Source of the DNA: Raillietiella orientalis | Lineage: Eukaryota | DNA length: 64,000 nucleotides | Reading direction: 5' to 3' | NCBI GenBank assembly: GCA_036172245.1 | Contig: JAYWIR010000050.1 | Coordinates: 186,001 to 250,000, forward strand | Translations under genes and position numbers: made by a program | Notes under the pieces: model-generated | The model's input: the letters and a program-made list of their open reading frames with translations, nothing else | Database searches by the model: none | What the model was told of the DNA's origin: nothing | Part shown: piece after piece, positions 1 through 46,816 of the stretch | How positions within the stretch are numbered: position 1 is the stretch's first letter | How the letters are laid out: the number at the start of each line of letters is the position of its first letter

Positions 1-1560
1 AAAGTAGAGACGGCGATCGGCTCGTTCCGAGGCGGCAGGTTTTTCCTGCCTGAACGGGCCGCGGTTTGGAACACGTTCGCGGCTCCTCTCCTCCGCCCCC
101 TGCTTTTTGTTTGCCCCCCCACAGAGAGAATTAAAAAGCGGACAAAGGATCTCCTCCGTATCGCCCTTTGGGGCAACGGGAGGGCCCGAGTCCGCTTAAA
201 GGACTTGTGCGCTCCTCGTCGGGATGGTGGTCTGGGCCTCCTGACGCTGGAGCGGCTGGAGCATCAGCTCCAGTTCCGCTTGTCGGCACTCGTTCCAGAG
301 TTGTGGTGCACCTGTTGGTGCGTCCCTGCACGTCTCCTTCCCCAGCAAGCCACCGGCAAGACGGGACTGACGTCGTTTCTTGCACTCCGTCGCCGCGTCA
401 ACCGATGCGGACTCCAGCTACGGAGGGTGGCTGCGCTGTATCGGAAAATCCCAGGATTGCTCACCTGACGCCCGTTTAACGGTAGTGCCTGGTTGCAGGA
501 AACCGTTCGCACGTGGGGACAGTTCGGCATGCAACGCTACCAACAGGAACGACGGTTCCTGTTTGGGGGTTACAGAAGCTGCACGCTCCTAGAGATCCTG
601 GAGGATCCGAAGAAGAGAGCATGGTCAGGAAGAACCCCTGTCGCTGCTGCACTGGCCTCCCTAGTAAAAGATCAGGACAGCGATGTTTCGGCGGAGTGGG
701 AGGTTAACATGATAATCTCCGGAAAGGAGAAGAAGCAGGGAGAGTGGAAGACGGGCCAGTTAAGAGACGCTGCGACCCCGAGTACGCCTCCCAATGGACT
801 TCTGCTCTGGGGCGCGCTGCTCGATGTTCCCATTGAACATTTGAAGTGGCCCCCTGTGCTCATGAACACTTCCACCCTCTCCTTAAAATGGCAAGAGTCG
901 GCATTCCTGTTGCAGCACTGGGGACTCCCCTGCAACGCCCGCCGACACCACTGGACCTGGGGAGCGGTCGATCCGAACTCTGTTAGGTGTGGGGAACGGG
1001 AGTCCCTCCCCCACCTCCTAGTGGATTGTGTTGCCTTTCGGCACCTTTGGCTCCGCTCTGCCGCGGCCATGGGCATCCCCTGCGGTAACCCCAGGAACGC
1101 ATTAAAAGCCCTCTTCGTTGCCGAAGCACTTCGGCCAGCGGCCTCGATAGCGGCCTTGTGCTGCCTTCGCGGGATCGTCGCCGCATGGAACACGGCTACG
1201 GGAGGATCACGCGATAAGGGTGCCATCCTGCATGACCCAATATTTTTGAGGAGGGCGTAGGGGTGGCCCCACCTGGATGCAGGATTTCAGAAAGAGCTTG
1301 CCGGCATTCTGCGAAGGATGCAACGGTCCCAGTAGCAACAGTGATCCCTTCCCTTACCCTCCTACCTTTTCTTTTTTTTTTATTTAATTTTTTTGTTTTT
1401 GCCCCTTCCCCCTGCTGCCGTGGTGGACCGTACCTGTCTGCGAACCGGTGACCTAGCAGGTTCTGTGTTTTTTCATGCGTGGTGGCTGAACTGGTCCAGC
1501 CACAGCACGTCTTTGTTAAAGTTTATTTTTTTTAATTAAGGAGCCTGCAAAATCCGGTTG
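1..1560 (+). mobile_element. Decayed L1/Tx1-clade LINE, 3' part of ORF2 (post-RT, CCHC zinc knuckle) plus T-rich 3' UTR
   Basis: LCAPRRDGGLGLLTLE motif (205+) and HWGLPCNARRHHW...CGERESLPHLLVDC (zf-RVT-like), broken by frameshifts. Degenerate family terminus ...ccggttg at ~1560. Confidence 0.85.
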
Positions 1561-1562
1561 AA

Positions 1563-4344
1563 AATGGAACCCGTTTTGTAGATCGTGCGCGACCGCCAAG
1601 GCACCCGGCGCTTCCTCAGGCCGAATGCAGCGACGCCTAGCCCTGGCAGCCGCAGATGCGGTTGCCTGGCTGTCGTGCGCCACGCGTCGCTGCATTTCGA
1701 ACCACGTGAGCGCGAAGAACAGCTTCGCTTCAATGGACCGTCCGGGTACAGCGTAGGACTGTTCCGGCCTCACCACTGATGCCGCGCTCCTGCCTAGGCG
1801 CTCGACCCACCGCCTGGAGAACAACTTGACGTCCGAATTCACGAAGGTGAATGGACGCCAATTGCTTAATTGGTGCATGTCTCCGCCTTTCGGCAAGAGA
1901 CGCACCCTTGCTGAGCGGAACGAGGCCGGGACATTGCCCGTCTCTCGCATCAGCGAAGAAAGTCTCAGCACCGGGGGGATGAGTTCTTCCGCGAAGCACT
2001 GGAAGAACTCCGCAGGCGGGCCATTTTCACCAAGCTCCTTTCGCCTGTTTAGGCCCGCTATGACGGAAGACACTTCTTCCACCGTAAAGGGCACATCCAA
2101 TGTGGCTCGTTCCTCCTCGTCGACGGCGGAGACATCCGCCGGCTAACTTAGCTCAGAGATACTGCGTTCCATCGGCTCCCTTGCATACAACGAGTAGTAA
2201 TAGCGCTTTCGGACGCGGTGAACTTCGGAAGTGCCGCGCCCTGAGCCCCTGCGGTCGCAGTCCATTTGCGTATATCTTTCTATTGCGTCGACCAGGAACT
2301 CTTTCTGTAGCTCCTGTAACGCATGGGATGTCCAAGCGTCTTCCTGGCTTACGGCAGCTCCTGCTGGCGCTTCGAGCTAATTATCGTTACTTTCAGAGGC
2401 TAGCACATGTACGACGTGCCGTTTTATCTCGACATATGGCAGAGTGACAGCCTAAGCTCCCTACTCTTCAGCACTTATTTCGAATTGATGCTGAGGGTGT
2501 ACAGGGAGACTCTGGAGCACCTGCAGCGCGATTGTCCCGGCGCGCCGGCCGTGTCGTCGTATGCTGATCATCTGCTCCTGCTGCCCATGTCCGGAGTTTC
2601 CGCAGTCGAAAAATTTTTCGTCCTGCTGAGCCGCGGGACAGGACTCCGGGTGATCAGGGAGAACTCGTCGGTGATAGCGGTTGGAGCAATGTAAGCAGGA
2701 CCACCTGACTGGATCCACTTGGGGGTCCCCACGAACAGGTACTTAAAGTACCTTGACATTCCATTGGGGACTTTTATCCGTCAGAAGTTCTGGTTAGGTC
2801 GCCTCCAGAAAGTCGATTTGGCGATTGGCCCGTTCCTGGAAGCAAGTTCCACTTTCCAAAACGAGCCGCGGTGTGGAACTCGTTCGTGGCCTCCCGCCTC
2901 GTTCCCTGCTTTTTGTTTGCCCCATACTTCGTAAGTTGAAAAATAGGTTCAAGAACTTCCTGCGCATCGCCCTGTGGGGCAGCGGAAGGCCCGGTGCGCC
3001 TCTGTAGGGCTGTGCGCTTCGCGTCGGGATGGCAGTCTCGGCCTCCTGACGCTGGAGCGAATGGAAATACAGCTGAGATGGCGAGCCATGGTCATCGCAG
3101 CAAAGTACTGGTGCATCCATTGGTGCGCTCCCGACCACTTCCCTTGCCAGCCGTGTATCCGGAGCAGGAGGGCTCTCATCTCATCTTCTGTGACCCGGCC
3201 GGAAGATAAGATGCGGCCTTCTCCTCGGACGCATGATTTTCTTGGCCAAGGAGAACGGCTGGATGGTCTGCTGCCCCATCAACTCCAGCGCATGGCTGAA
3301 AAAACCGTTGGCACGTGGGCAAAGCTCAACCAGTTCCGAGATGAACCCTGGAACTGCCTGCGAACTGGCATCTACGCCCTCTGCTCGCTGCGGAAGATGC
3401 TCAAGTGTCGAGCCAGGAGCACGTGGCTGGAGATGACCCCACCTACCATGGCGCAGTCCTCTTTGAGGAGAGAGCTTGGCAGCAGCCGAACGCTGAGGTG
3501 GCAAGTCTACTTCGGAATAGCAGGCAGCAAAAAGATATTAAGTGGTTGGACCATGAGGGAGTTGGCCGAGGTCACTACACCGAACGTCCTTTTGCTGAGA
3601 TTGCAGAGATGGGGCGAGCTTCTGGGCATCCCGTCCGATGACCTAAAGTGATCCTCGGTGTTGAAACACTCATCTACTCTCCCCATCAAGTGGCAAGAGT
3701 GTTGCACTGTGTTATCCCCTGCAACTCGCGCCGCCACCACTGGACGCTGGGGGAGGTGAGACAGAACTGTGCAGTTTGCTTGCAAAAGGAATCCGTCCCC
3801 CACCTGTTAGTGGACTGCGCTGCCCTCCGGCCCTTGTGGGAACGTTTTGCTACGACCCTCCGGATGCCGGTCGGCAGTACCCCCAGAGACGTTGTATGCC
3901 TCCTCTTCGTGCGAGACGCCCTGCCACCAGCCTCAACCCTGGCAGCGCTCTGCTGCCTCCGAGGGATTGTGGCTGCGTGGAGCGCAGCCAACAGAGAAAG
4001 CAGCGATAGCAAAGCACCCCATCGTACACGCGGGTCGCTACCTGAGGATCTCGATTGGATGGTCCCATCTGGGAGCTATGCAGAGGAACCTCGAGGGCAT
4101 CCTGTAAAGGATGGACCTTCCCTTTAGCAGACCGTGATCCCTTCTTGGACCTCCAAAGTGTTTCGTTTTTGTTTTCTGTTTATTTTTTTCTCGGTTTTTC
4201 CCCCATCCCCCTCCGCTGCCGAGGAGAGTCGCGCCGGTCTGCGTACCAGCAACCCGGTAGGTCCCGTAATGCATTAGCCGTAATGTGGCCTGGTACCACG
4301 AATATACAGTTGAGGTTTATGAAACGCTCTGGAATGACCGGGTC
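1563..4344 (+). mobile_element. L1/Tx1-clade LINE copy with inverted 5' segment (1563-~2275 antisense RT N-terminus; ~2275-4344 sense RT to 3' end)
   Basis: Minus strand reads FTVEEV...GENGPPAEFF...LLPKGGD...NWRPFTFVNSDVKLF...EQSYAVPGRSI up to the AFD-equivalent (GFH). Plus strand resumes at F(Y)CVDQELF, then QSDSLSSLLF, SYADH (YADD), LCASRRDGSLGL, CAVCLQKESVPHLLVDC. Terminus ctctgg-aatga-ccgggt. Confidence 0.85.
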
Positions 4345-7800: not shown

Positions 7801-9878
7801 TGAGGTCTCTTGAGAGCGTGAATTGCGCTCCTGGTAGCCAGATTGCGTTGTCCATGGTGTTGATGACAAGATTAAACTGCACCTTCCTGCTGCCGAAGGT
7901 GCTCTTTACGTAGCGCAGCTGAAAGAAAAGGGAAGAAGAGGTGGAGGGAAGCGGAGGGAAAAAATGGCACGTTCCGGGACGTACGTCTCCAAGCAACCGC
8001 AAGTTTTGCTTCCTCCCTCCCCTCCTGCGCTACTGCCGAAAGCGAGCCTACGGCGGCAACGTCCGCATGAGCAAGAGACGTGGACACACCGCGCTGTTCG
8101 CGCTCTTCTCGCGTGGAGCGACTCCGTCGGCGAACCGAGCGCTCCGCAGCAGTGCAAGCGCCCAAAGTCTCGCCTTTCTGCACCCTCGGTCCTCTCTTCG
8201 ACGGCCTAGTCTCCTCTTCCAGGAACCCTCTCCATCCGGGATCCGAAGAGTCTCCCGTCTACCTTCCGATCATCTCAGCGGAGACAAAGTGGCAGCCCGA
8301 TTTCCGGACGTTTCCGAAGCATTTCCACTCATAACCAGTGCCTTCGAGCGACCCCTCCAGTGGATGTGTTCAAGTCCATGCAACGGTGGTTGCACTCGCC
8401 CGTTATCTTCGCACTTCCTCCATCCCCCCTCTCCCCTTTTAGCTGCGCGGTTCCCCTTTGCCCCACACGCGCGCGCGCATACGGAAGGACGACGGCATGG
8501 CGGTGGGAGATAGGCCAGATCGCAAGCAGCACCAGGAGGACCGACTCACCGGTCAGATCTCGCAGTCGTCCCGGGTAGACATGGTTCCCGGAAAAGGCAG
8601 CGCACAACGACGACGCTCTGGCGAGCGCAATTCGCGCGCACCCGCGCTCGCAACAAGGGAGGAAGCGCGACCGAACAGGGGAGGGACTCGGCCACTCATG
8701 CTGCAATCGTGCTGCCCTCCGGTGATGGAGACTCGAGTGTGCCGACTGCTGCTCCACGCGCGGAGAACGATCGGTGGCGCTAAGCAGAGCACCACGTTCG
8801 CGCCCCGATCGCCGGAGCAGTCCTCCACGGCTGCCTTTGCGAAACGCACTGGCGATACAATGCTCGGAATAGCCTCTAGCGAGAAAGGAGTGCCATCTAC
8901 TCGGCGACTTACTTATTATCGAGGAGGGAGACTAGATGGCAGCACCGAGTAGGCTCGAAGTGTGCTTGCGACTTGCATGCATCGTGAAAAAAAAGTTGCG
9001 CCTAGGAGCACAGAGGATAAGCATCTCCTTTTTTGACACCGCTTTTCCTTCTCTCTGCCGTGGTCTCCCGATGACAAGTAGGCTTGCTTCTCCGCGGCCA
9101 CGCCCGTTAGCAGCCCATTTGAGATGCCGTCCGTCTCTGGCTGTTGTAAAGACGCAGCGAGCGTCCCGGTGCGATCGATTGCGAAGGGCAGAGAATTCGA
9201 CCCGATCTATGCGGAATCCTCCCGGCAATAAAGAGGGAAAGCGGAAGTTTGGCGATGCTCCATCCAAGCAGTGCAGCAGCGGTGGCTGAAGAGTCGGGAA
9301 CCTCTTTCTCTTCAGTTCAGCGAGCGCTTTCTCGTTCGTTCAGTGTTGGCGCGCGCGCGTTCCGTGGGCGTTCAATCCACCCATGGTGCCCGGTGAAACG
9401 CAGGAAGGGGCGACTCCCGCCTGGAGAGAGAGATGCGGCGCTGAGCGCCATCTCGAAGGATGCTCATCTAGGTGCCCTCGGTCGCCACGCGCTTGTGGTC
9501 TGGCACAGCTCCAGCAGCTACGCGTGTCTCCGCGGTTCGACGCGTGCGGAACCGGGCGCCCTCGTCGGAGGGAACAGAACAGGGTGCGAGGAGGGAGCAA
9601 TACTCACCGAGCCATCGCACATCAGCTGTACGGTGATTCCTGGCTTCTGTGCTGCCGGCTTTACTGGCTTTACTGGCTTTACTGGCTTTACTGGCTTTAC
9701 TGGCTTTACTGGCTTTACTGGCTTTGCTGGACCCTTTGGCTTCTGACCCGGCTTCTGCCTTTGCCTTAATTCAGTCTGCTCCAGATCAGGAGCTTGCTCC
9801 ATGAGCATCTCCATTTCCGCCAAGCTGATTCCATCAAGCCCGTGGTGTTCATCCGCAGTGTCCACTTTGGAAACGCTG
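4830..9878 (-). CDS. Pepsin-family (A1) aspartic protease homolog, catalytically inactive; spliced, 5' exon(s) unresolved
   Basis: Phase-compatible GT-AG exons 9878-9608, 7918-7795, 7746-7628, 6875-6673, ~6298-6146 (least certain), 5315-5165, 5112-5023, 4976-4830. Colinear pepsin motifs: YVKSTFGSRKVQFNLVINTMDNAIWLP, HRGYAAANSTSF, QVFGVA..YGMIGLA, ITIGDLTLCDRECTVLVNPS, FDSDDYIAK, FILGDIVTAKYPTEFD. Confidence 0.85.
9657..9730 (-). repeat. 9-bp tandem repeat (GGCTTTACT)x~8 encoding (KPV)7 in the pepsin-like prosegment exon
   Basis: Directly visible; translates as AKPVKPVKPVKPVKPVKPVKPVKPA in frame with the exon ending at the GTGAGT donor (9607). Confidence 0.95.
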
Positions 9879-12555: not shown

Positions 12556-14882
12556 ACAAGCCAGCGCGCAAAGCAGCGGGACATTCGTCCTGGCGGCTTA
12601 CCCCCCGGGGCGATCGGCCTCACGGCGGAACTTCGGCTTCGCACTCGCAGTGACCGCATCCTTGCGCTGATTTTCACGAGGAGCGGACGGACGGTTCCCG
12701 ACCGTCCGGCAGGTCCGCCGGGAGTTCTCCCGGCAGCTGACGCAGCATGCTGTTGAGGCGCCGGGCTCGAGGGCGCGCGGAACCCGGGGGGCAAGGAATC
12801 GAAGCCTCAGGAAAAGATTTACCTGCACAGAGTCTCTTCGGATGGAGCCACTTAGGCCGCTGCAGCAGGTTGTACCGGTCGGGTGCCGAGTTATCCGCCC
12901 GAAGGCGAGGTCGTGACGTTCTTAAGGGGAGCGGACGACTGCCGCGGGAGGCGCAGTTGGGAGCGACGAGTATCAGTTCGTCGGGAGGATCCTCGACCAA
13001 TAAGAATTCATCGACGGCACGACAAACAAAAACACGTGCTCTCCCGGTGGGTCTCGAGCGAGGCGGGAAGAAAAATATCCCGGTGACGCGGCGGCCCCCA
13101 TTTCACTCATCGCTCTCTCCTCGTTCGTAGTTTCCGGGTGGGTCTCTTCCGCGTTCCTCCATGCACCTTCCCTCCTCTCCCTCCTCCGCTCCTGCCGGCG
13201 CGCGTTCTCCGCAGCCTCCAGCTGGCAGGGGAGGTCAGCCTTCTAAGGGCGCCGCGCGACTCCCTGCGGTCGCCGTTCTGGCGCCTCGTAACGACGGCTT
13301 CTGTTCTCCTCTCCTCCCGAGGGGAGGCAGGCGACTTTTGCGGCGGGCGCTTCGACGCCATCCCGCGACGAGGAACGCGACCACCCATCCGCCGCCTGAG
13401 GGGGCGCATGGAAGGAAGGCCCGACCGGCGTACGCGGTCTCCGCGAGTTCACGCGGCGGCGGGTGGTTCTACGGCTCCCCTCACCCCCATCCCGGGACGC
13501 CGCGCTCGCACGGATCCGCAACAGTCGCCCTCGGGAGTCTGCGCGCGGAGCGGCGGGAGGTGCCGATGGGACCGCGGGCGCCCCTGCTCCACCACTTCCT
13601 TCCGGCGAACTCGGACGTGCGGATAAGGGTGACCACGGAGGTAGCCGCTCCGGGCGCCTCCGGGCTTGCTCAACTTGCACCGCCTTGCGACACCTCAGGC
13701 GGCAGCCGCTGCCGAGGGTCGTCTGCTACTCACGCAAGGAGCAACCGCTGCTGCCTCAGCTGCTCAGAAGCTGTGCGTCCTCCTTCTCCGGCCATTAGCG
13801 CTAATGTCGTTCCCAATTCCGACAGCAATAAGCCAAATCGCTTCCCGGGATTTCCCCGTCCCTGCAGCCGCGCACGTGCTGCACGTGCACAAAAGAGGAA
13901 TGGGGGGCAGACGTGGCTCCCCCGGGATGCGTGCACTCTCGTGGCTGTGAAGTCCTTGGCGGAACGTTGGGCAAGAAGTTCCTTCGAAACGGGTGGCGGG
14001 TCTTCCCCTCCTTCTCCGCTCCCTCCCCTCCGCAGGCTCAGAGGGGATGGTGATGCCGGAGGATACTCCTCTGTCCGTCGCCCGTCGTCCCCGCGGCTGT
14101 TGCGCACAACACACCAGATGAATGCTCCTCCCTTGCTCCCGAAACGCGTCCGTCCGGGACGCCCACCCTGTAGCCATGCGTCGGATGCTGCTTCGCTGCG
14201 CCTTTCCGGGGCGGCACCCTAGACGTGCTGCCCCAGAATCCGCCCGCGCGTGCCCTTCTGTGGCGAGAGGGGGCGGCCACATCTTTAGCAAACAGGGAGA
14301 GGGGCCGGGATCCAGGAACTCCGGCGGTGGAGTCTCGAATTCGCGGAAGGAGCGCGGCGCTCACGTCCGGATAGGAAAGGAAGAGAAACGCCTTGGGGAG
14401 GGAGGACGGGAAGGTGATGGATGACGACCGGGAGCGGCACATCCCCTCGCAGACGGAGGGACTTGGGAACTTCCGGATGCTCCCCGGAAGAGATTTCTCC
14501 CCAGTGGAGGCTGCACCGGAAAGCGCGCGCGCGCACACACTATTCCAAGGAACCTTCGAAACCTCGAGCGTGTACTAGGGGCATTCGGGGAGATTCTGGC
14601 ACCCCTGCCGCGCTCGTGCCCAGGCACTCCTTCCACATCCGCGCTGGTCGACGACCTTCCGCCGCTCCCCATGTGCAGCCCGGCGTCAGCACGCGAGGGC
14701 TCCTTCATGCTGTTGGGTCGTGGCACGGGCTTGTGGTGAGCAGGGCCAAGTCGTCGCCGGAGCCGTTTGGCTCGGCGCGGGCAAGAGGGCCGGACTGAAT
14801 CTGCTTGGAACCTCCACGTGGTGGTACTTCAAGTGCCACAGCGTGCCGTTCGGTGACTTCCGCCTGCTCTCAGAAGGTTTTC

Positions 14883-17800
14883 CACCCGTTCGTCCCGGGA
14901 GGTGCATCTTAAACAAAAACACACACAAAAAAAAAAACAAGGATGGCAGTTTCTTGGGATTCGTGGCTAAAAGAAATGGAAGCAAAAAAAGTCAACTGGA
15001 GAGGGCACTCCCACTGGCAGGAAAAAGAAAAAATGGTCTGCAGCATTGGGAGGGAGGGGAAATGCACCAATAAATAATGGGTAGGCGGGAATGGGGACAC
15101 AGGCCTTGTTACGTTCCTTTGAAATTAACCATGCGATGCTGATGATCTCCCTACTGACTTAGAGCTTTGGAAAAGACCGCCTGCTCAAGACCTGCAGACC
15201 ACTTTCCTCAAGACAGCTACAGCAATGCTCAGCCTCTCGTTGCCGCTGGCGCAGCTCCAACGAGTAGCGGGCCGCGAGGATGCCGCGAACGCAATGCAAA
15301 GCCCCGATCGGGGCGGCAGATGAGCGCCCCTCTCCCGTGAAGAAGCAGCGCGGCAGATCGAGAGGCGCATCTTGCGGGTGGAGAAGAGCCGAAGCCAGGC
15401 TCTTCCACGGAGGTCGGATGACGCCGCAGTTCATCAGTAGATAGGGGAGCGATTCGATCTCCTCGCATCCGGAGCCGCGCTCCGCAGAAGCACTCCCTCT
15501 AGTCACGTGATGCATGCGATCGCTGCAGTGAAAACCCATGCAAGAACAGCACCACGTCGTGTTGCCACCGGAGAGGGAGCACAGCGGTGTTCAAAACCAG
15601 AGGGAGCACACTCGCAGTTTCGACCCACCGGCGAAGTCCTTCACCAGGCGTCGCCGCATGGGCCAGCGCTTTCGTGGAACATCCGCCTAGGAGTTTTCCC
15701 ACTCCCCCTATGCCGCAAGAAAACTCCCACCCTGCCGGTAGGCAACTGTCCACTGCTCTCTCTTAGGGAAGGCAGCGCTGCGGAGAATCAACGAGCCCAC
15801 TTGGTGGGCTCGTCGACGGTTCTCTGTAGCGGCAGCCTGCCGGACCGCTGAACCGACATCTTCCGGGCTACTGCTGGTAAGCCGAGCCCAAGTATCCGCA
15901 GATTCCTGCTGCCAGTTATTCAAGTTCACATGGAGGCAGGAGATCCACTCCTTGGATTCCAGCAGGAAGGCGATCTACCTCAGGGGAGACTTCAATTGCT
16001 CCATACATTCCCGGTTGCGAAAAAGCGGGGACGCTAGTCCCTCGCAACCGGATGCTTGCCGCAAAATGTGGCGAGCGGGGAGACACCACTGCTGGTTTCG
16101 TGCCCTCTCCATCCATCAGGGCGAGTCTCCGAAAGTGTAGCTACAGCTCCAGCCTTTTCATGGTAGGGATGCCGAGTCCGGCGCAGCATCTCTCTGAGGC
16201 GGACGCGGGGTCGCAAAGCACTCCGAAAAACCTTCCTTAACAGTTCGTCGGCCCGTTGTCCCACTCAGAGGGAGGAAAACAATCAAAAAGGGGCAAAAAG
16301 GAGTGGTCGGAGGAGGGGAGCTCGTTGGGCCAGGAGGCGTGCTGGAACGCACCAGGGCGTGTCCCACAATTCTGCCGCAAGGGCGAGAGTCCTAAATCTA
16401 CTTTGCCGTTTCATGCTCTCCAGCGTAAGTAGGCCAAGTCCACCGTCCTTACGTGGAGCGCACAAGTCTTTGAGACGCAAACGGGACCTCCCTTTGCCCC
16501 AAAGGACTGTCCTGAGGAGATCCACTGCTCGTTTTCATACAAAGTGAGGGGCGGGGCACACAAAAAGTAAGGGGCGAAGAAGGGGGCGGCAAACACGTTT
16601 TACACCGCGGCCCATTCCTGCAAGTGAAACTTGACTTCGTGGAACGGACCGATAGCCAACGATGCCTTTTGGAGACGGTCGGACCAGGCTACTTGAAGGT
16701 ACTTGAAGCACCTGCTCGTGGAGATCCCCAAGCGGATCCAGTCCGACCGCCCAGCCCACGCCGAACCGACAAAGACCATGGACGACTTCGCCCTGTTCAC
16801 CTCCAGGCCTGTCTCGCGGCGCAGCAACTCGAAGAAGTCCTCGAGCGCACTCGCCGAGGTGGACCCAGGAAGCAGCAGCAGAAGATCGTCTGCATAGGCC
16901 GACACGGCAGGCGTGCCGGCACACAAGCTCGGCAGGGTTGCCAGAGTTTCCCTGTATGCTCTCAGCACCAACTCGGAGTAGATGCTGAAGAGCAAGGGGC
17001 TCAGGGTGTCACCCTGCCGGATGCCGCGGCGCATTGGCACGCCGTACACGTGCCGGCCGCTGAAACAAATGTTGATTAACGCGAAGCGCCAGCAGGAGCT
17101 CAGGTGGGACTGGAGCACCGCCTGGAAGCCTATGCGTTCCAGGAGCTTTAGACGTCTCCAGCTTTCGTCGTTTCTCTGGGCGCGCGACTGCAGACAAGCA
17201 CATTGCGGCTTTCACCTGCGTCACGTGGCCGTTGTGGTTCGGGAGAACGCCTGGATCTCCTGCCTCCCAGGGAACCACTCTGCAAGATTGCACGAGTCAG
17301 TCTCCACGTGGGAAAAGATCCACGTTCCGGCGGGCACGAAGAACACTTGCCTGAAAAGGCACGCCCGCTGGACGCTGCAGGAGATCTTACAGTCCCACGA
17401 TCAGCTTCTGTGGGCCCTCATTACCCTCCTTGCCCCAGTGCTGCCCTCCTTCAAAACGCCAGGGACAGCAGCGAGCAGGGGAAATGGAAAGTGTTCTGCA
17501 CCCTTGACGGCAGGACGTGGTGGACATCTCGGCAGCTAGCGGATGCTGCGACGACGAGTGTCCCGCCCAACGGAATTCGACGCTGAGGCGAGCTACTCGG
17601 AATATCTCTGGAGGAGATGAAGTGGCCCCCAGCGTCCTGGAACAGTGGCTCCCTCCCCCTGAAATGGCAGGAGGTGACGTTGCTCATGTTACATTGGGGT
17701 TTACCCTTCAAAGCACGCCTCTCTCACTGCAAACGGGGGCTGTGGATTCCCAGTACGATCGGTGAGGGGAAAAAGAGACATTCCCACACCTCCTTGTTGA

Positions 17801-18870
17801 CTGCAGAACCCTCCGCCCTCTGTGGGATCGTCTTGTGGCGATTCTGGACATTCGCGGAGGTGCCCCTAAGGACATTTTCAGGCGCCTCTTCTCTCGCGAC
17901 GCCTTGTCCCAGCCCGCCTGTGTAGCAGTTTTCTGTTGCATGCGAGGCATCGTGGCGGCATGGAACGCGACTAGAAGACGTCAGAACATTAATAGTGCCT
18001 TACATTGGACTCGCATTTTTGTGCGAAACATCTCCAGGTGGCGCCACTTGGGTGCACAAAGGACGCAGCTTGTGAGGATCCTGAACAGGATCTAGAGGAC
18101 CTCTCCGCGCGCCCTGTGATCCCTGCCCTGCCCTCCCATCCCCAAAACATTAGTGCCCTCCCCACTTTTGAACTTTTTGTTTGTTTTGTTTCTTTGTCCC
18201 GACCCCCGCGCATGGGAAGGACCTCGCCGGTTCCGCACCGGCAAGAAACAAGCTGCCTTGTTGTGGTGAACTTTTAGGTTCGGCACGCGAAAATTCATGT
18301 ATTTTCATTCTTAAAATAAATGCCTCGGTATATCCGGGTGTAAACGAGGAGGGGAGCTACAAAAGGGTTCCAGATCGAGGCCCGCTCCGGCAGGTAGAAC
18401 AGGCCTTTCGGCAACGGGCCAAGAGCATTCTTGGCTTTCTGAAGGCAGCCGGAATACGATTTTGCACCGCAGAAGTCGACCAATGGTACGCCAAGATGCT
18501 AGAAGTTTCTTCTTGTAGGGATCCCCAGGCGGATCCAGTCAGGCTGCTTCTCCAGCGACGCTTAGACCGGAGAGATCGTGGACTTTGTCCTGTTGACGCG
18601 CAAGCTTGCTCCTCAGTGCATCAGCTCGAAGAACTCCTCGAGCTTCTCCACCAGTATGGACCTGGGCAACAAGAGAAACGGTTCTTCAGCGTAGGCTGTC
18701 AAGGGGGCACGTGCAAGTACCCACTCGGCGCCAACCCTAAGTAGGCGCTGAATAAAACGTGAAGCAGACCGTCACCTTGGATAGTTCCTTGGCGAACCTA
18801 CACGCCCTGAACGTGGCGACCTCCGAAACTGATGTTGATTAGCGCGTCGCGAGCCATAGCAAGTGCGAGT
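14883..18870 (-). mobile_element. Older L1/Tx1-clade copy (RT to 3' end), interrupted at 16323-18345 by a nested copy
   Basis: Minus strand QGDGLLHVLFSAY (~18780) and ERASIWNPFVAPLL (18346+) continue as RPLLFAPF (<16310), then IESLPYLLMNC and a T-rich UTR. Terminus cccg-ggacgaa-cgggtg at 14883. Confidence 0.8.
16323..18345 (+). mobile_element. Nested 5'-inverted L1/Tx1-clade insertion with 13-bp target-site duplication
   Basis: 16323-~17150 is antisense RT (GIRQGDTLSPLLF, AYADD, LCAPRKDGGLGL ... PARLLAQR). ~17150-18340 is the sense continuation (LSSFLWAR...). TSD GAGGAGGGGAGCT at 16310-16322 and 18346-18358. Confidence 0.9.
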
Positions 18871-18949
18871 ACTGCAGCAAGCAGAATGGGAGTTCAGAGC
18901 GCTACAGGAGTTCCAGAAGGTGCTCCTGGCTCATGCAGTCGAATTCTTC

Positions 18950-21462
18950 GGGGTCCGAGTCCGCTTGAAGGACTTGTGCGCTCCGCGTCGGGACGGCGGT
19001 CTTGGCCTACTGACGCTGGAGCTGCTGGAGCTTCAGCTCCAGTTCCGGATGTTGGCACTTGTGCCGGAGTTGTGGTGCACCTGCTGATGCGTCCTTGCAC
19101 GTCTCCTCGTCAAGCAAGCCACCGGCAAGACGGGACTCACGTCCTTTCTTGCACTCCATCGCCGCCGAATCAACCGATGTGGGCTCCAGCTGCGGAGGGT
19201 GGCTGCCTTGGTTCAGAAAAATCAAGGATGGATCACCTGTCGCCCCTCGAACGGTAGTGCCTGGTTGCAGGAAACCGTTCGCACGTGGGGACAGTTCGGC
19301 ATGCAACGCTCCAAACAGGAACGACGGTTCCTGTTTAGGGGTTACAGAAGTTGCACGCTCCGAGAGATCCTGAAGGATCCGAAGAAGCGAGCGTGGTCAG
19401 GAAGAACCCCTGTCGCTGCTGCACTGGCCTCCCTAGTAAAAGATCAGGACAGCGATGTTTCGGCGAAGTGGCAGGTTAACATGATAATCTCCGGAAAGGA
19501 GAAGAAGCAGGGAGAGTGGAAGACGGGCCAGTTAAGAGACGCTGCGACCCCGAGTACGCCTCCCAATGGACTTCTGCGCTGGGGCGCGCTGCTCAATGTT
19601 CCCATTGAACATTTGAAGTGGCTCCCTTTGCTCAGGAACACTTCCACCCTCCCCTTGAAATGGCAGGAGTCGGCTCTCCTGTTGCAGCACTGGGGACTCC
19701 CCTGCAACGCCCGTCGACACCACTGGACCAGGGGAGCTCTCACCCGGTCACGCCGGAACGTTTATTGATAAACACTTTACATTTGCGGTACTAGGCCCCG
19801 CTACGGCCAATAGTTCATGGGACCTGCCAGGAAGCCGGTTCGCAGACCAGCTTGACTCTCCTCGGCAGCGGAGGGGATAGGTGGTAAAACAAAAAGAAAA
19901 ATAAATGAGACAAACAAAAAAAAAGAAACTATGTGGAGGACCGGGAAGGGATCACAGTTCGCTGGTGGAAGAGACCATTCTTTCCAGGATGCCTTCGAGG
20001 TCCCTCCCAGATGGGCCAGCCGATCGCGATTCTCAGGTAGCGACCCGCGTGTACGATGGGGTCCCTATCGCTGCTTCCTCTGTTGGCTGCGCTCCAGGCG
20101 GCCACAATCCCTCGGAAGCAGCAGAGCGCTGCCAGGGCTGAGGCTGGTGGCAGGGCGTCTTGCACGAAGAGGAGTCTCACAACGTCTCTGGGGGTACTGC
20201 CGACCGGCATTCGGTGGGTCGTAGCAAAACGTTCCCGCAAGGGTCGGAGGGCAGCGCAGTCCACTAACAGGTGGGGGAGGGACTCCTTCTCCCTACACAC
20301 TGCACAGTTCTGTCCCACGTTCCATAACGTCCAGTGGTGGCGGCGCGCGTTGCAGGGAAGACCCCAGTGCAACAACAGCAGCGCCGTTTCCTGCCACTTG
20401 AGGAAGAGGGTGGATGCGTCTCTAAATAACGGAAGCACTTTAGGTCATCCAGCGGGATGCCAAGCAGCTCGCCCCATCTCTGGATTCTTCGCGGGAGAAC
20501 GCTCGGGGTAGTGGCGTCTGCCAGCTCTCCCATGGTCCAGCCGCTGATCAAATTCTCTCTGCCTGAGATTCGGCAGGAGACTTGCCACCTCGACTTACGG
20601 CTGTTCTGAAGAGCCCTTCTCAGGAAGGGCATCGCTGTAGCAAGGGGGGTCGTCTCCACCCACGTGCTTCTGGCGGGACACTCGATCATGTTGCGCAGCG
20701 TGCAGCGGGTGTAGATGCCGGGACGCAGGCGGTTGCAGGATTCTCCACTAGGCTGGTTTAACTTCGCCCACGTGCCAACTGTTTCTTCCAGCCATGCGCT
20801 GGAGTTGGCTGGGCTGCAGGCCATCCACCCGTTCTCCTTTGCCAGGGTGGCCATGCGTCCCAGGAGAAGGCCGTATCTTCTTATTTTCCGGCCGGGCCAC
20901 AGAAGAAAAGACGCGAGTCCTTCAGTCCCGGACACACGCCTGGCGAGGAAGCGGGCCGGAACGCGCCAAGGGGTGCTTCACATCTTCGCCGCGATGGCCA
21001 TGGTGCGCCATCGCAGCTGAATTCCCACGCGCTCCAGCGTCAGGAGGCTAAGACCTCTGTCCCAACGTGGAGCGCACAAATCCTCGCCGCTTGGAGCAAG
21101 ACAACGGGAGTACCTTACGATAAGGGGGCCATCCAGTGCGCCTCTGAATTCCTGGAGAGGGCGACGCTGTGGCCCCACCTGGATCCAGGCATGCAGAAAG
21201 AGCTTACGGGCATCCTGCGAAGGATGCAACGGCCCCAGCAGCAACAGTGATCCCTTCCCGCATCCTCCTACGTTTTGTTTGGTTTTTGTTTCGGTTTTTG
21301 TTTGTCCTCTCTTCGCCCTGCTGCCGTGGTGGACCGTACTGATCTGCGAACTGATGAACCGGCAGGCTCTCTGCTGTTTCTTTGAGTGTGGCTGGATCAC
21401 TGGTCCAGACACAGTACTTGAAAAAAGTTTATTTTTTAATAAATGCCCTGGCAACCAGGGTG
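18950..21462 (+). mobile_element. L1/Tx1-clade 3' fragment (18950-19740 and 21083-21462), split by an antisense copy
   Basis: 18950-19737 is near-identical by eye to ~182-965. 21083-21462 matches ~1177-1560 and ends AATAAATG-ccctgg-caa-ccaggg-TG. Confidence 0.85.
19741..21082 (-). mobile_element. 5'-truncated L1/Tx1-clade copy, close relative of ~2990-4344
   Basis: LCAPRWDRGLSLLTLE and HWGLPCNARRHHW..CAVCREKESLPHLLVDC. Terminus AATAAACG-ttccgg-cgtga-ccgggtg at 19741. Confidence 0.85.
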
Positions 21463-43647: not shown

Positions 43648-46600
43648 TTAATTCTGATTCTGACGCAATAATTTCACCAAGCAGACTTCTAAACGTGCTA
43701 AAGGTCCCCTTGAACCAGCTGGTGTTATCTGCTGAATGTTCGGAAAAAACTCATAACAAAGGGCATAGAGAAGTTTCTGATACTGCAGACCGTATGTCTG
43801 AAGCAAAAGAAAACTCAGAGAGTTCAACACTGGTAAAAGAAGTGTTGCCGTGACATTTGGTATTGGATCTGTGGACACGTGAGAGAGAACAAAGGAATCA
43901 ATAAACTCACCTGCATGAAGTACATTTGCTAACCAACGCCAACCTTCCACAATTCCCCACTCATGATGTCGGGCACCAAAAGTATTTACAATGACTCCAT
44001 ACAACCGAGCGATCCCAGTCATGCGTTTCAGATACTTATCTTCAGTTTCCCAGCCTTCCTTGCTGCGCACATAACCTTGGACACTGAAGTTAAACTGAAG
44101 GAACTGGTAAATTTACACATGCTTACCTCAACCAATCTTCTTCCGCCTGCTCTTCAGTTTTGTGCAAATGCAATGGAACAAGAAGAGGGCATCTCTTATA
44201 AAAATGGGCCTTTAAAAGCTGCCCAAAGTCAGGAAATGCTTCCCAAAGACCCACAATTACTGTGGCAAGAGGAACTGCAGCTTCTGGATGACTGCTAACT
44301 GTATCTTCTGCTTGGCTCTAACTTTATCCTGATATCATCATCTGCTTAACAGTTGCTCACCACCAATTTATCAGCCAACAAATTCTTGCAATACAGTACA
44401 CCTTCAGGATGCTCGGCTGCACATACTTTTTGTCCTCCAATAACAATTGCTTTTCCTCCAAGAAGTTGCTTGAGACGAGACAGCTTGTCTTGCAAATGGG
44501 ATGCTGATGTACTTGAAATGGTGTTGACCAAAGTATTGACTGCTTTCTTCAAAACGCAAACTGCTTTGAAAACTCCTTGATCATAACCTTACCTTTAAAG
44601 AAAAGCGATACTGTTTAAGACTAGCATTGCCATCTAGTCCATCCATCTGCACTGCCACTTGTTGCAAGAGCTCCATAAGCTGATCATAACATTCCTGACA
44701 TAAATCTTTTTCTGGTATATCTTTAATCTCTTCCTCTTGCAATGTTTCTACTGTCATATCACTTTCGAGAACAGGAGTTAATTCGAGCTCTTCTTTTTTC
44801 TTATCTGGATACAAAGCTTTCTTGATATTCAATAATGCATTCAGTGCCCTGAGGTAATGCATTCCATCACCTCAGAGAAATTCCATTACCTATGTCAGAC
44901 AAAATGCAGTGTGCTTGGTTTAGCAAACTTTCCGCTTGCTGAATTTTCTCCTCCGATGGATCCTTACATTCCAAAAGTTCTTGTGCAGCTTGCATCAGAT
45001 GCTGTATCATCAATCCAGATCCATGAACAGGCAGCATTCTGAAGATGACGTTAGTGAACACTAAGCCAAGCTACATACGTGATTAGGGCACTAATAGATT
45101 CCAAGCAATTGTGGATCTCTTTCACTAATGAAGCAAGTCGATCCTGAAGACGCTGCTGCTCTTGCTTTTTACGCCGCTGCTCTTCTTCCATCCTCCACAA
45201 CCTAGCAGTCACCATCTGCTACCACATTTACACACATTCCCTCATTTTCAAGTTCTCACCTGAGCATGCTGCTTGTTGGCTTTTTTCTGTTGGTCATATC
45301 TATATTCTTCTTCTTGTTGCAAAAGAATCTCTGTTTGTCTCTGATGATTGCTGTCCTGATTATGCTGGTAATCCCAATAACGATGCATAAGATGCTGAGA
45401 TATAAGTAATTCAGCTTCAGCCATTGCTCCATGATGGCGCCTCATGGCACTCTGTTAACCACTTGATAAGATGAGCAATATTATTCCTCCTTACTTGTAT
45501 ACATCTCTCTTCTTCTTTCTGATACAGCTGCAGCTTCCTACCTACGTCATTTAGAAGGGGAACTTCAGAAATGGAAAAAGAGTTTATCCTAGGCTATATA
45601 CTAACAGTACAATAACTGAATTAAAAGCTGCACATACTTGTTCTCGAATTGGAGTAGTATCTACAGGAGTTGCTGGTACAGCTGCACAGTCCTGCTGCTT
45701 AACATGGTTGAGTAATTGATGCCTATGCAGAGAAGTACTTGCTTGCGTAGGAGATGCTAAACTTAGAAGCATCAGCTAAAAAAACGAAAGACCAAGAGTA
45801 TTTTAATAATTTTTTTCTGGAAAGCATGATGGACTTTAAACTGGATGATGTAAGCATTCCATTCCTAGAAATCCCAAAGGGCAAGATATGAAACAATTAT
45901 CCCATAAAATCATACAAAACACCCTTCAGTAAGAAACAGTACTCAGAAATTAAAGATAGTATATTGACAACAGAAATCAGCAGTACAACTGCTGATTCTG
46001 GATGTAATTAAGCACAGAGTCTGGTACCAAGTACCGAACACTTTCATGTCGCTTCAAGGCTCTACGCACTTTTGTAGAGCTTATGTCATTCTCGATCCAT
46101 TCCCGGACAATATGAATGTTGGCTTTATAATGATTCAGCAGATCAGACTCGTAAATCACTTGACTGACCGACTTTCCCTTTCTGCTCACTACCACCACAC
46201 CATAATCTCTTAGAATGCTCTCCATGTGTTCCTTTTTCCAGAGATTAGGCACCTCAAATGATGACAAGACATCAGCACCACACAACAACTTTAATTGGCA
46301 ATTAGATTGCTGTTCATCATAGTGTTGCTGGTGATGTTTAAGAACCTCGTAAGTTGGAGTCCACTCCTGCTGTTCACATTCCCACTTGGATAGCTGAACC
46401 CATGGGTGTGATTGCAAAGCAGTCTCTACCATTTTCAATCTATGAACTCCTGATTCCAAGGTTGTCTTGCCATACTTATCATTAACTGGTGACATAATGC
46501 CACCAACAACTTGTTCATTTGTGGATGACATAAAATAATCTTTGGCTAATTCAAACAATCTTAGATGCATTATTGTTGGAGGATTATAAGAACCACATGC

Positions 46601-46816
46601 TAAGAGCACAATAGATTTACCTATCTGAAAGTCACTCATTCTTATGGCGCTAGTTGTAATGCGTATGCTTCACGATTTGTGTACATTTTGTCAGTCAAAT
46701 AAAATTCAATCAAGCCTAACCTCTATATGAGTGGTTTCATGCCAATGACGATCATATTTCAAGGATGCTTTTGGTGTGCCTAGCAAGTGCTCAGATCCAT
46801 GAGGGTCAGATATCAT
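43648..46816 (-). CDS. GLE1: mRNA export factor GLE1 (multi-exon)
   Basis: KKAVNTLVNTIS, EDKYLKRMTGIARLY, GWRWLANVL, GPLARLE and a coiled-coil mid-region. Exon 1 46816-46721 (LLGTPKASLKYDRHW) splices in phase 0 to exon 2 at 45775. Confidence 0.88.
45977..46639 (-). CDS. NMNAT: Nicotinamide mononucleotide adenylyltransferase, intronless, 220 aa
   Basis: LLACGSYNPPTIMHLRLFE, LKLLCGADVL, WIENDISSTKVRRAL. Confidence 0.97.
   Translation of the reverse strand: MSDFQIGKSIVLLACGSYNPPTIMHLRLFELAKDYFMSSTNEQVVGGIMSPVNDKYGKTTLESGVHRLKMVETALQSHPWVQLSKWECEQQEWTPTYEVLKHHQQHYDEQQSNCQLKLLCGADVLSSFEVPNLWKKEHMESILRDYGVVVVSRKGKSVSQVIYESDLLNHYKANIHIVREWIENDISSTKVRRALKRHESVRYLVPDSVLNYIQNQQLYC

Follow-up and report, generated by a model that had tools for sequence, protein, structure and literature searches.

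Probable twin priming in an L1-like LINE: a 5'-inverted insertion and two further inverted copies in the same genome

Twin priming was reportedly put forward by Ostertag and Kazazian in 2001 for the 5'-inverted copies of human L1, a long interspersed element (LINE). Here we describe a LINE insertion with this arrangement at positions 16310..18358 of a 64-kb stretch of DNA (G000:C50:186001-250000, hereafter the window), which belongs to an assembly of 210 Mb in 491 contigs. About 30% of recent human and chimpanzee L1 copies are inverted, and about 70% of the human inverted copies show 2-5 bp of microhomology (PMC2912911). In an experimental comparison, 5' inversions were obtained only with human L1 in human cells, apart from a single insert of the zebrafish element Nimb-2_DR in chicken DT40 cells; the authors conclude that the LINE and the host both matter for 5' inversion, link the inversions to TSDs (target site duplications) of 10-20 bp and suggest that long overhangs of 10-20 nt are needed (PMC4245944). 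A further study (bioRxiv 2024.12.14.628481) deals with human L1 only. A literature search, conducted at the level of titles and with most subscription journals outside its coverage, found no report of 5' inversion in an endogenous invertebrate LINE; PMC3956500 and PMC6007223 likewise yielded nothing on the subject.

Together with copies L100 (G000:C3) and L175 (G000:C33), the window copy makes three inverted copies on three contigs, in two families. As in the twin-primed L1 copies of humans and other primates, both arms of one element, the 5' arm inverted and the 3' arm in sense, lie within a single target site duplication (TSD), and the breakpoint shows either a small deletion or a slight overlap (PMC2912911, PMC2837659). 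Also shared with the human and primate inversions are a TSD of 10-20 bp and a microhomology of 2-5 nt or more between TSD and arm, which is weaker or missing at the inner junction. Judged from its sequence, the window copy probably represents a single L1-clade retrotransposition event that was resolved by twin priming (probability roughly 0.8).

Anatomy of the insertion and of its target site

The 13-mer GAGGAGGGGAGCT occurs at exactly two places in the window, at 16310 and 18346, and nowhere on its minus strand. Both copies of the 13-bp TSD that the original prediction had placed around the LINE were thereby found, with a sequence unique to them within the window. The left copy (16310..16322, plus strand) carries at its 3' end what would be the second primer, the last 3 nt being able to pair with the element RNA where the flip occurs. 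The inverted 5' arm follows exactly at the TSD edge (16323..17147, minus strand, 825 bp). It covers the reverse transcriptase (RT) part of open reading frame (ORF) 2, at about amino acids (aa) 591-877 on the natural full-length ORF2 of copy L037, on which the aa positions of the arms and of the host halves were mapped. The arm matches Pfam RVT_1, is 85-91% identical to other copies of the family and ends in ...WCVPARLLAQR, in agreement with the antisense RT stretch of about 830 bp noted previously. The 14 nt of the inner junction (17148..17161, not assigned to a strand) are without counterpart in family copies. Alternatively, the arm can be read as extending to 17161 and containing 10 inserted nt whose core is palindromic.

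The element resumes in sense with LSSFLWAR at 17162 on the plus strand, as had been proposed, and runs on to the 3' terminus of the family at 18345, which gives a sense arm of 1,184 bp (17162-18345). Its coding part (17162..18095, plus strand) corresponds to the C-terminal portion of ORF2, aa ~880-1198, and includes the Cys/His region, for which full-length copies give a zf-RVT match; the frame is disrupted by frameshifts and stops. The 3' untranslated region (18096..18345, plus strand) contains AATAAA at 18315-18320 and the conserved terminus of the family with a few A's, and a poly(A) tail is absent. The right TSD copy (18346..18358, plus strand) is an exact repeat of the left one. Read from left to right, the structure thus consists of one TSD copy, the inverted arm, the additional bases of the junction, the sense arm with the terminus of the family, and the second TSD copy; the insert between the TSD copies measures 2,023 bp, both arms included. 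The window copy is a dead LINE that has neither ORF1 nor an endonuclease and whose frames are broken. It is also old, with terminal branches of 0.06-0.08 substitutions per site in trees of the two arms.

This age would have left time for an ordinary 5'-truncated insertion of 2 kb to have its first 825 bp inverted later at the DNA level, and small inversions do happen in repeat-rich DNA. Against this, the outer breakpoint of 3/3 inverted copies falls on precisely the base that borders the TSD, with both TSD copies intact, and no inverted repeats flank the arm except for a 6-nt motif at both ends. We regard a later inversion as very unlikely.

The insertion lies within the first 27 kb of the window, which are dense with related LINE fragments on both strands, and it interrupts one of them. 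The upstream half of this host LINE (18359..18948, minus strand, ORF2 ~aa 580-787) belongs to an older sister family. On uninterrupted relatives it meets the downstream half (14859..16309, minus strand, ORF2 ~aa 792 to the 3' region) with exactly one copy of the TSD. The restored host reading could be followed as predicted, with ...IWNPFVAPLL on the right side and (APLL)RPLLFAPF on the left side of the element. The host had been taken for a copy of the element's own family, which proved to be wrong. Sequences are usually assigned to one family at a nucleotide identity of about 80% or more. The host matches the inverted arm at 336/518 aligned nt (64.9%) and the family references at 66-72%, compared with 85-91% for the arms, and the closest relatives of the host in the genome share 69-79% identity with it.

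When each host half was extended by its TSD copy, the two overlapped by exactly 13 nt on 3/3 uninterrupted relatives tested (L048, L049 and L050). Therefore, the whole insert, with both arms, entered one site. No further element sequence was found outside the TSDs: both flanks are host at 65-72% identity, and the arm has neither a continuation nor a 3' end there.

The same evidence bears on the idea that a sense copy was inserted into an antisense copy of its own family, producing a head-to-head junction that resembles an inversion. Nesting is indeed very common in this genome, with LINE coding sequence in the 3' flanks of 42/99 sampled copies, antisense ORF2 in 17 of these 42, and two head-to-head junctions in the window, at ~2250 and ~18950, that are nesting. 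Such a mimic does not explain the window copy, whose TSD surrounds the two arms together and whose flanks are host sequence that closes with the 13-nt overlap; moreover, the arms adjoin each other on the family RNA, and the flanks of L100 are non-LINE. Nesting is accordingly a most improbable origin for the window copy. Antisense landing in a LINE of a sister family is common in this genome and requires no special explanation. True inversions have to be separated from the far more common nested head-to-head junctions, and the combination of TSD and empty site achieves this separation.

The flanks also revealed a reused target. The 3' flanks of 14/99 sampled copies (L093, L105, L106, L130, L131, L142, L149, L154, L155, L159, L170, L171, L173 and L174) share one site, antisense and at ~aa 362-363 of the ORF2 of a related LINE. 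The inserts differ in their 5' ends, and L105, L106, L149 and L173 carry TSDs of their own of 9-12 bp. The shared site reflects site-specific targeting of relatives.

The two arms on the family RNA and further inverted copies

Relatives of the window copy were searched for in its own genome, and 40 of 4,330 candidates were scored. On these relatives the reverse complement of 16320-17147 is colinear with the match to 17162-18345 and lies 16 nt upstream of it, so that 16-19 nt of family RNA between the arms are absent from the window copy. The family RNA reads ...CCCAACG|AGC... at the flip point, and 19 nt starting with AGC precede the start of the sense arm. Since the reverse complement of the TSD also starts with AGC, base-level comparison with family copies bears out the predicted microhomology at the TSD edge: 3 nt, or 6/7 nt allowing one bulge. 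The exact tail of the window copy is found at 8 places genome-wide.

Trees of the arms were built from 16 rows, the window copy and 15 relatives covering both arms. In these trees, the sense arm clusters with L002 and L003 (support 99/96 and 95/91; diagnostic sites 8 vs 1). The two parts, for which a gap on the RNA or different subfamilies would have contradicted the original prediction, thus lie 16-19 nt apart and both group with L002/L003, the inverted arm weakly. The subfamily signal of the two arms is consistent with one source RNA, short of proof. The weak assignment of the inverted arm could be taken to favor dual priming, in which two RNA molecules are used, one at each nick, as has been suggested to be possible for primate L1 (PMC2837659). 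Two independent RNAs give no reason why the arms should meet within 20 nt in 3/3 cases, and we find this origin scarcely credible.

To count further inverted copies, we took the first 100 listed of 1,791 3' ends in the genome, most of them with ~4 kb of upstream sequence; removal of 2 tandem tail duplicates left 98. Two of these 98 copies, L100 and L175, showed the inversion geometry, and both are TSD-flanked with microhomology at the TSD edge, which answers the count that the original prediction had called for. L100 belongs to the second family, is 98% identical to the references and has a 13-bp TSD, a sense arm of 423 nt and an inverted arm of 1.13 kb, and each of its two junctions, at the TSD and between the arms, shows 3 nt of microhomology. 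L175 combines a 733-nt sense arm with a 3.07-kb inverted arm, again within a 13-bp TSD; its TSD microhomology is 6 nt, its arms overlap by 4 nt, and microhomology at the inner junction is lacking. L175 sits at a target site that its own subfamily reuses, and its TSD is a one-base variant of the usual site that yields the 6-nt match to the RNA.

A TSD of at least 10 bp could be called for 23/98 copies (10-16 bp, mode 13); in the remainder the 5' end was unresolved or a TSD was not found. The inversion rate was 2/23 among TSD-delimited copies and 2/11 among those of at least 400 nt. A microhomology of at least 3 nt was present in 3/3 inverted copies, compared with 3/16 alignable 5'-truncated TSD-flanked copies (Fisher one-sided P about 0.02, calculated by hand, on small numbers and with a window copy that was not sampled blind). 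On the family references, the three microhomology motifs are found at 1.6%, 1.2% and 0.05% of positions.

That all of this comes from a single assembly raises the question of an assembly or amplification chimera. A fold-back artifact yields a single junction. To explain the present copies, it would have to create two junctions together with a TSD and an uninterrupted host frame, and to do so three times on three contigs; such an origin appears hardly conceivable.

Several junctions that resemble inversions were rejected. In the window, an antisense stretch at 1500-2246 stands beside a sense stretch at 2251-4343 with a geometry that fits at the protein level, yet this is nesting: the antisense and sense stretches find their matches in different copies (85-87% vs 74-81%), and a bracketing direct repeat of more than 7 nt is absent for 1500-4343. 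The head-to-head junction near 18950 (18951-21437) joins different families by nesting. Candidates from the protein-level scan (L018/L032, L049, L077 and L088) have arms of different families or share hosts.

Twin priming weighed against repair

The order of the twin-priming steps follows, by analogy, the model for human L1 (PMC2912911, PMC2837659). The endonuclease would first nick both strands of the host LINE, 13 bp apart. The bottom-strand end would then prime complementary DNA (cDNA) synthesis at the 3' end of the RNA, with ~1.2 kb copied. The top-strand 3' overhang, which ends in GCT, could pair with AGC inside the same RNA and prime a second cDNA that extends for ~0.83 kb in the direction of the RNA 5' end. 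Finally, host repair would join the two cDNAs and add 10-14 nt by synthesis. If so, the three inverted copies imply that in this lineage, too, cleavage of both target strands precedes the end of first-strand synthesis.

A number of observations weigh against this order of events. The microhomology at the TSD edge of the window copy is merely 3 nt, and at its inner junction neither microhomology nor complementarity between the two arms was found, 10-14 extra nt being present instead; complementarity at this junction is not obligatory in human L1 (PMC2912911, PMC2837659). The grouping of the inverted arm with L002/L003 is weak (support 86/84; diagnostic sites 4 vs 4), and its raw identity is 91.5% to L029 and 91.4% to L024, compared with 90.9-91.4% to L002/L003. 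In L100, the TSD microhomology fits only if 12 nt of template, between short direct repeats, were skipped in the arm. A second sample, 40 of 77 new loci taken from the first 100 matches to an internal motif (607 in all), yielded 0/40 inverted copies, with limited sensitivity of the scan since most of these loci are 65-79% like the references. The protein-level scan recovered the window copy and L100 and missed the known positive L175. The zero is weak for these reasons and still lowers the rate.

Last, the sequence does not separate a second priming by the RT from a repair-driven flipping of a cDNA piece. In the latter case there was also one event, in which a long first-strand cDNA (or its duplex) broke and host end-joining flipped the 5' piece and linked it through microhomology to the end of the target; no second cDNA would have been primed on the RNA. 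The 10-14 extra nt at the inner junction, locally repeated and palindromic, would suit such a course. So would the fold-back or iterative 5' additions of three short copies: L117 is TSD-flanked and has a 5' fold-back inverted duplication with 17-nt arms, L115 is similar, and L101, also TSD-flanked, carries iterated short repeats at its 5' end. These additions show repair synthesis to be active at these LINE ends. Flipping by end-joining requires one break and two joins, and it fails to predict that the breakpoint-proximal arm end lies at the TSD with the best microhomology in 3/3 cases. The arm overlap in L100 and L175 further demands that the same stretch of RNA was copied twice. We therefore consider end-joining unlikely and retain twin priming.

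The element family, its relatives and other features of the window

Full-length copies of the family encode a zinc-knuckle ORF1 and a 1,198-aa ORF2 with APE, RT and zf-RVT domains. The ORF2 of L037 matches the profiles Exo_endo_phos (2e-13), RVT_1 (6e-24) and zf-RVT (1e-5, just under the curated cut-off). Upstream ORFs, corresponding to ORF1, contained zf-CCHC in 5/5 cases scanned (E 3.5e-5 to 4.3e-4, two slightly below the cut-off). The best solved-structure match of ORF2 is human L1 ORF2p (3e-44 vs 4e-14 for R2), these being the sole LINE types among the matches listed, and the nearest database ORF2 proteins are 26-30% identical and unclassified. At the 3' end, AATAAA is followed by the conserved motif and ~2-6 A's, poly(A) tails being absent. 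Genome-wide, this motif was matched 1,791 times, compared with 0 for a control, and it is common to several families. Features of mammalian-type L1 are thus missing, the 3' ends having no poly(A) and the TSDs not being A-rich. L1-clade members with a type I ORF1, including Tx1-type elements, have zf-CCHC in ORF1 and APE, RT and zf-RVT in ORF2 (PMC5203782). From its domains, the family architecture fits the L1 clade with type I ORF1, like Tx1-like elements.

Many Tx1 elements reuse fixed target sites, as the sister families do here. One reused site lies in ORF1 and is occupied by L033, by L175 and by L035/L036/L038/L044. In L033 (L033:3215-7030) a 1,272-aa open frame fuses ORF1 to the RT, with the endonuclease absent; this is a 5'-truncated copy inserted in frame at the reused site, with its own TSD.

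Unlike human and primate L1, the elements described here have a type I-like zinc-knuckle ORF1 and reside in what appears, from one gene (that for NMNAT in the window), to be a divergent non-vertebrate animal. Their 3' ends consist of the conserved motif and a few A's where L1 has a poly(A) tail, and they often target GC-rich sites in other LINEs, not TTTT/AA. The apparent inversion rate, 2/23 TSD-delimited copies or 2/11 of those of at least 400 nt, is below the ~30% of recent human and chimpanzee L1 (PMC2912911), and the TSD lengths of the family fall in the range of human L1 inversions (PMC4245944). The non-mammalian Nimb-2_DR element is alike in its 5' inversion in DT40 cells and in a TSD peak near 12 bp (PMC4245944). 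Unlike that single insert, there are here three endogenous germline copies in two families.

The mechanism itself is already known; new are its distant lineage and its occurrence in elements without a poly(A) tail, which we regard as a well-supported extension. Twin priming in an invertebrate L1/Tx1 lineage had been proposed at the outset: the twin-priming part is supported, and the word invertebrate is drawn from the one gene. Three copies in a non-vertebrate genome suggest that twin priming is not peculiar to mammals. The copies are endogenous, lack poly(A), carry TSDs of 13 bp and belong to an animal lineage far from mammals, which favors overhang length over mammal-specific factors. An evenly balanced proposition, to our minds, is that twin priming is general to APE-type LINEs with a stagger of ~13 bp and needs neither mammalian factors nor poly(A), that it accounts for about 1/10 of TSD-delimited insertions here in at least two families, and that chance complementarity between overhang and RNA decides its occurrence. 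With 1,791 3' ends, some of them at reused target sites, this genome is suited to testing overhang-RNA complementarity against inversion rate.

Other repeats were also observed. L167 and L168 (G000:C32:2165724 and 2166416) are two outward-facing 3' termini of two families, ~700 bp apart. Within the window, an inverted repeat of 333 bp (57663-57995 and 58443-58775) is 98.8% identical across a spacer of ~450 bp, and an inverted pair of 1.2 kb (32156-33376 and 37189-38387) shows 71% identity and was unmatched by the LINE references used. A short tandem repeat with a 9-nt unit, within 9290-9769, is visible as repeated tripeptides. Host-gene exons lie on the minus strand at 43648-44112 (GLE1-like), 45977-46669 (NMNAT, cytidylyltransferase-like) and 60725-61249 (a Nop-domain small nucleolar ribonucleoprotein protein). 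The NMNAT protein has no close relative: identity to its best 120 matches is 43-58%, and those that carry a name come from arthropods, molluscs, echinoderms and vertebrates.

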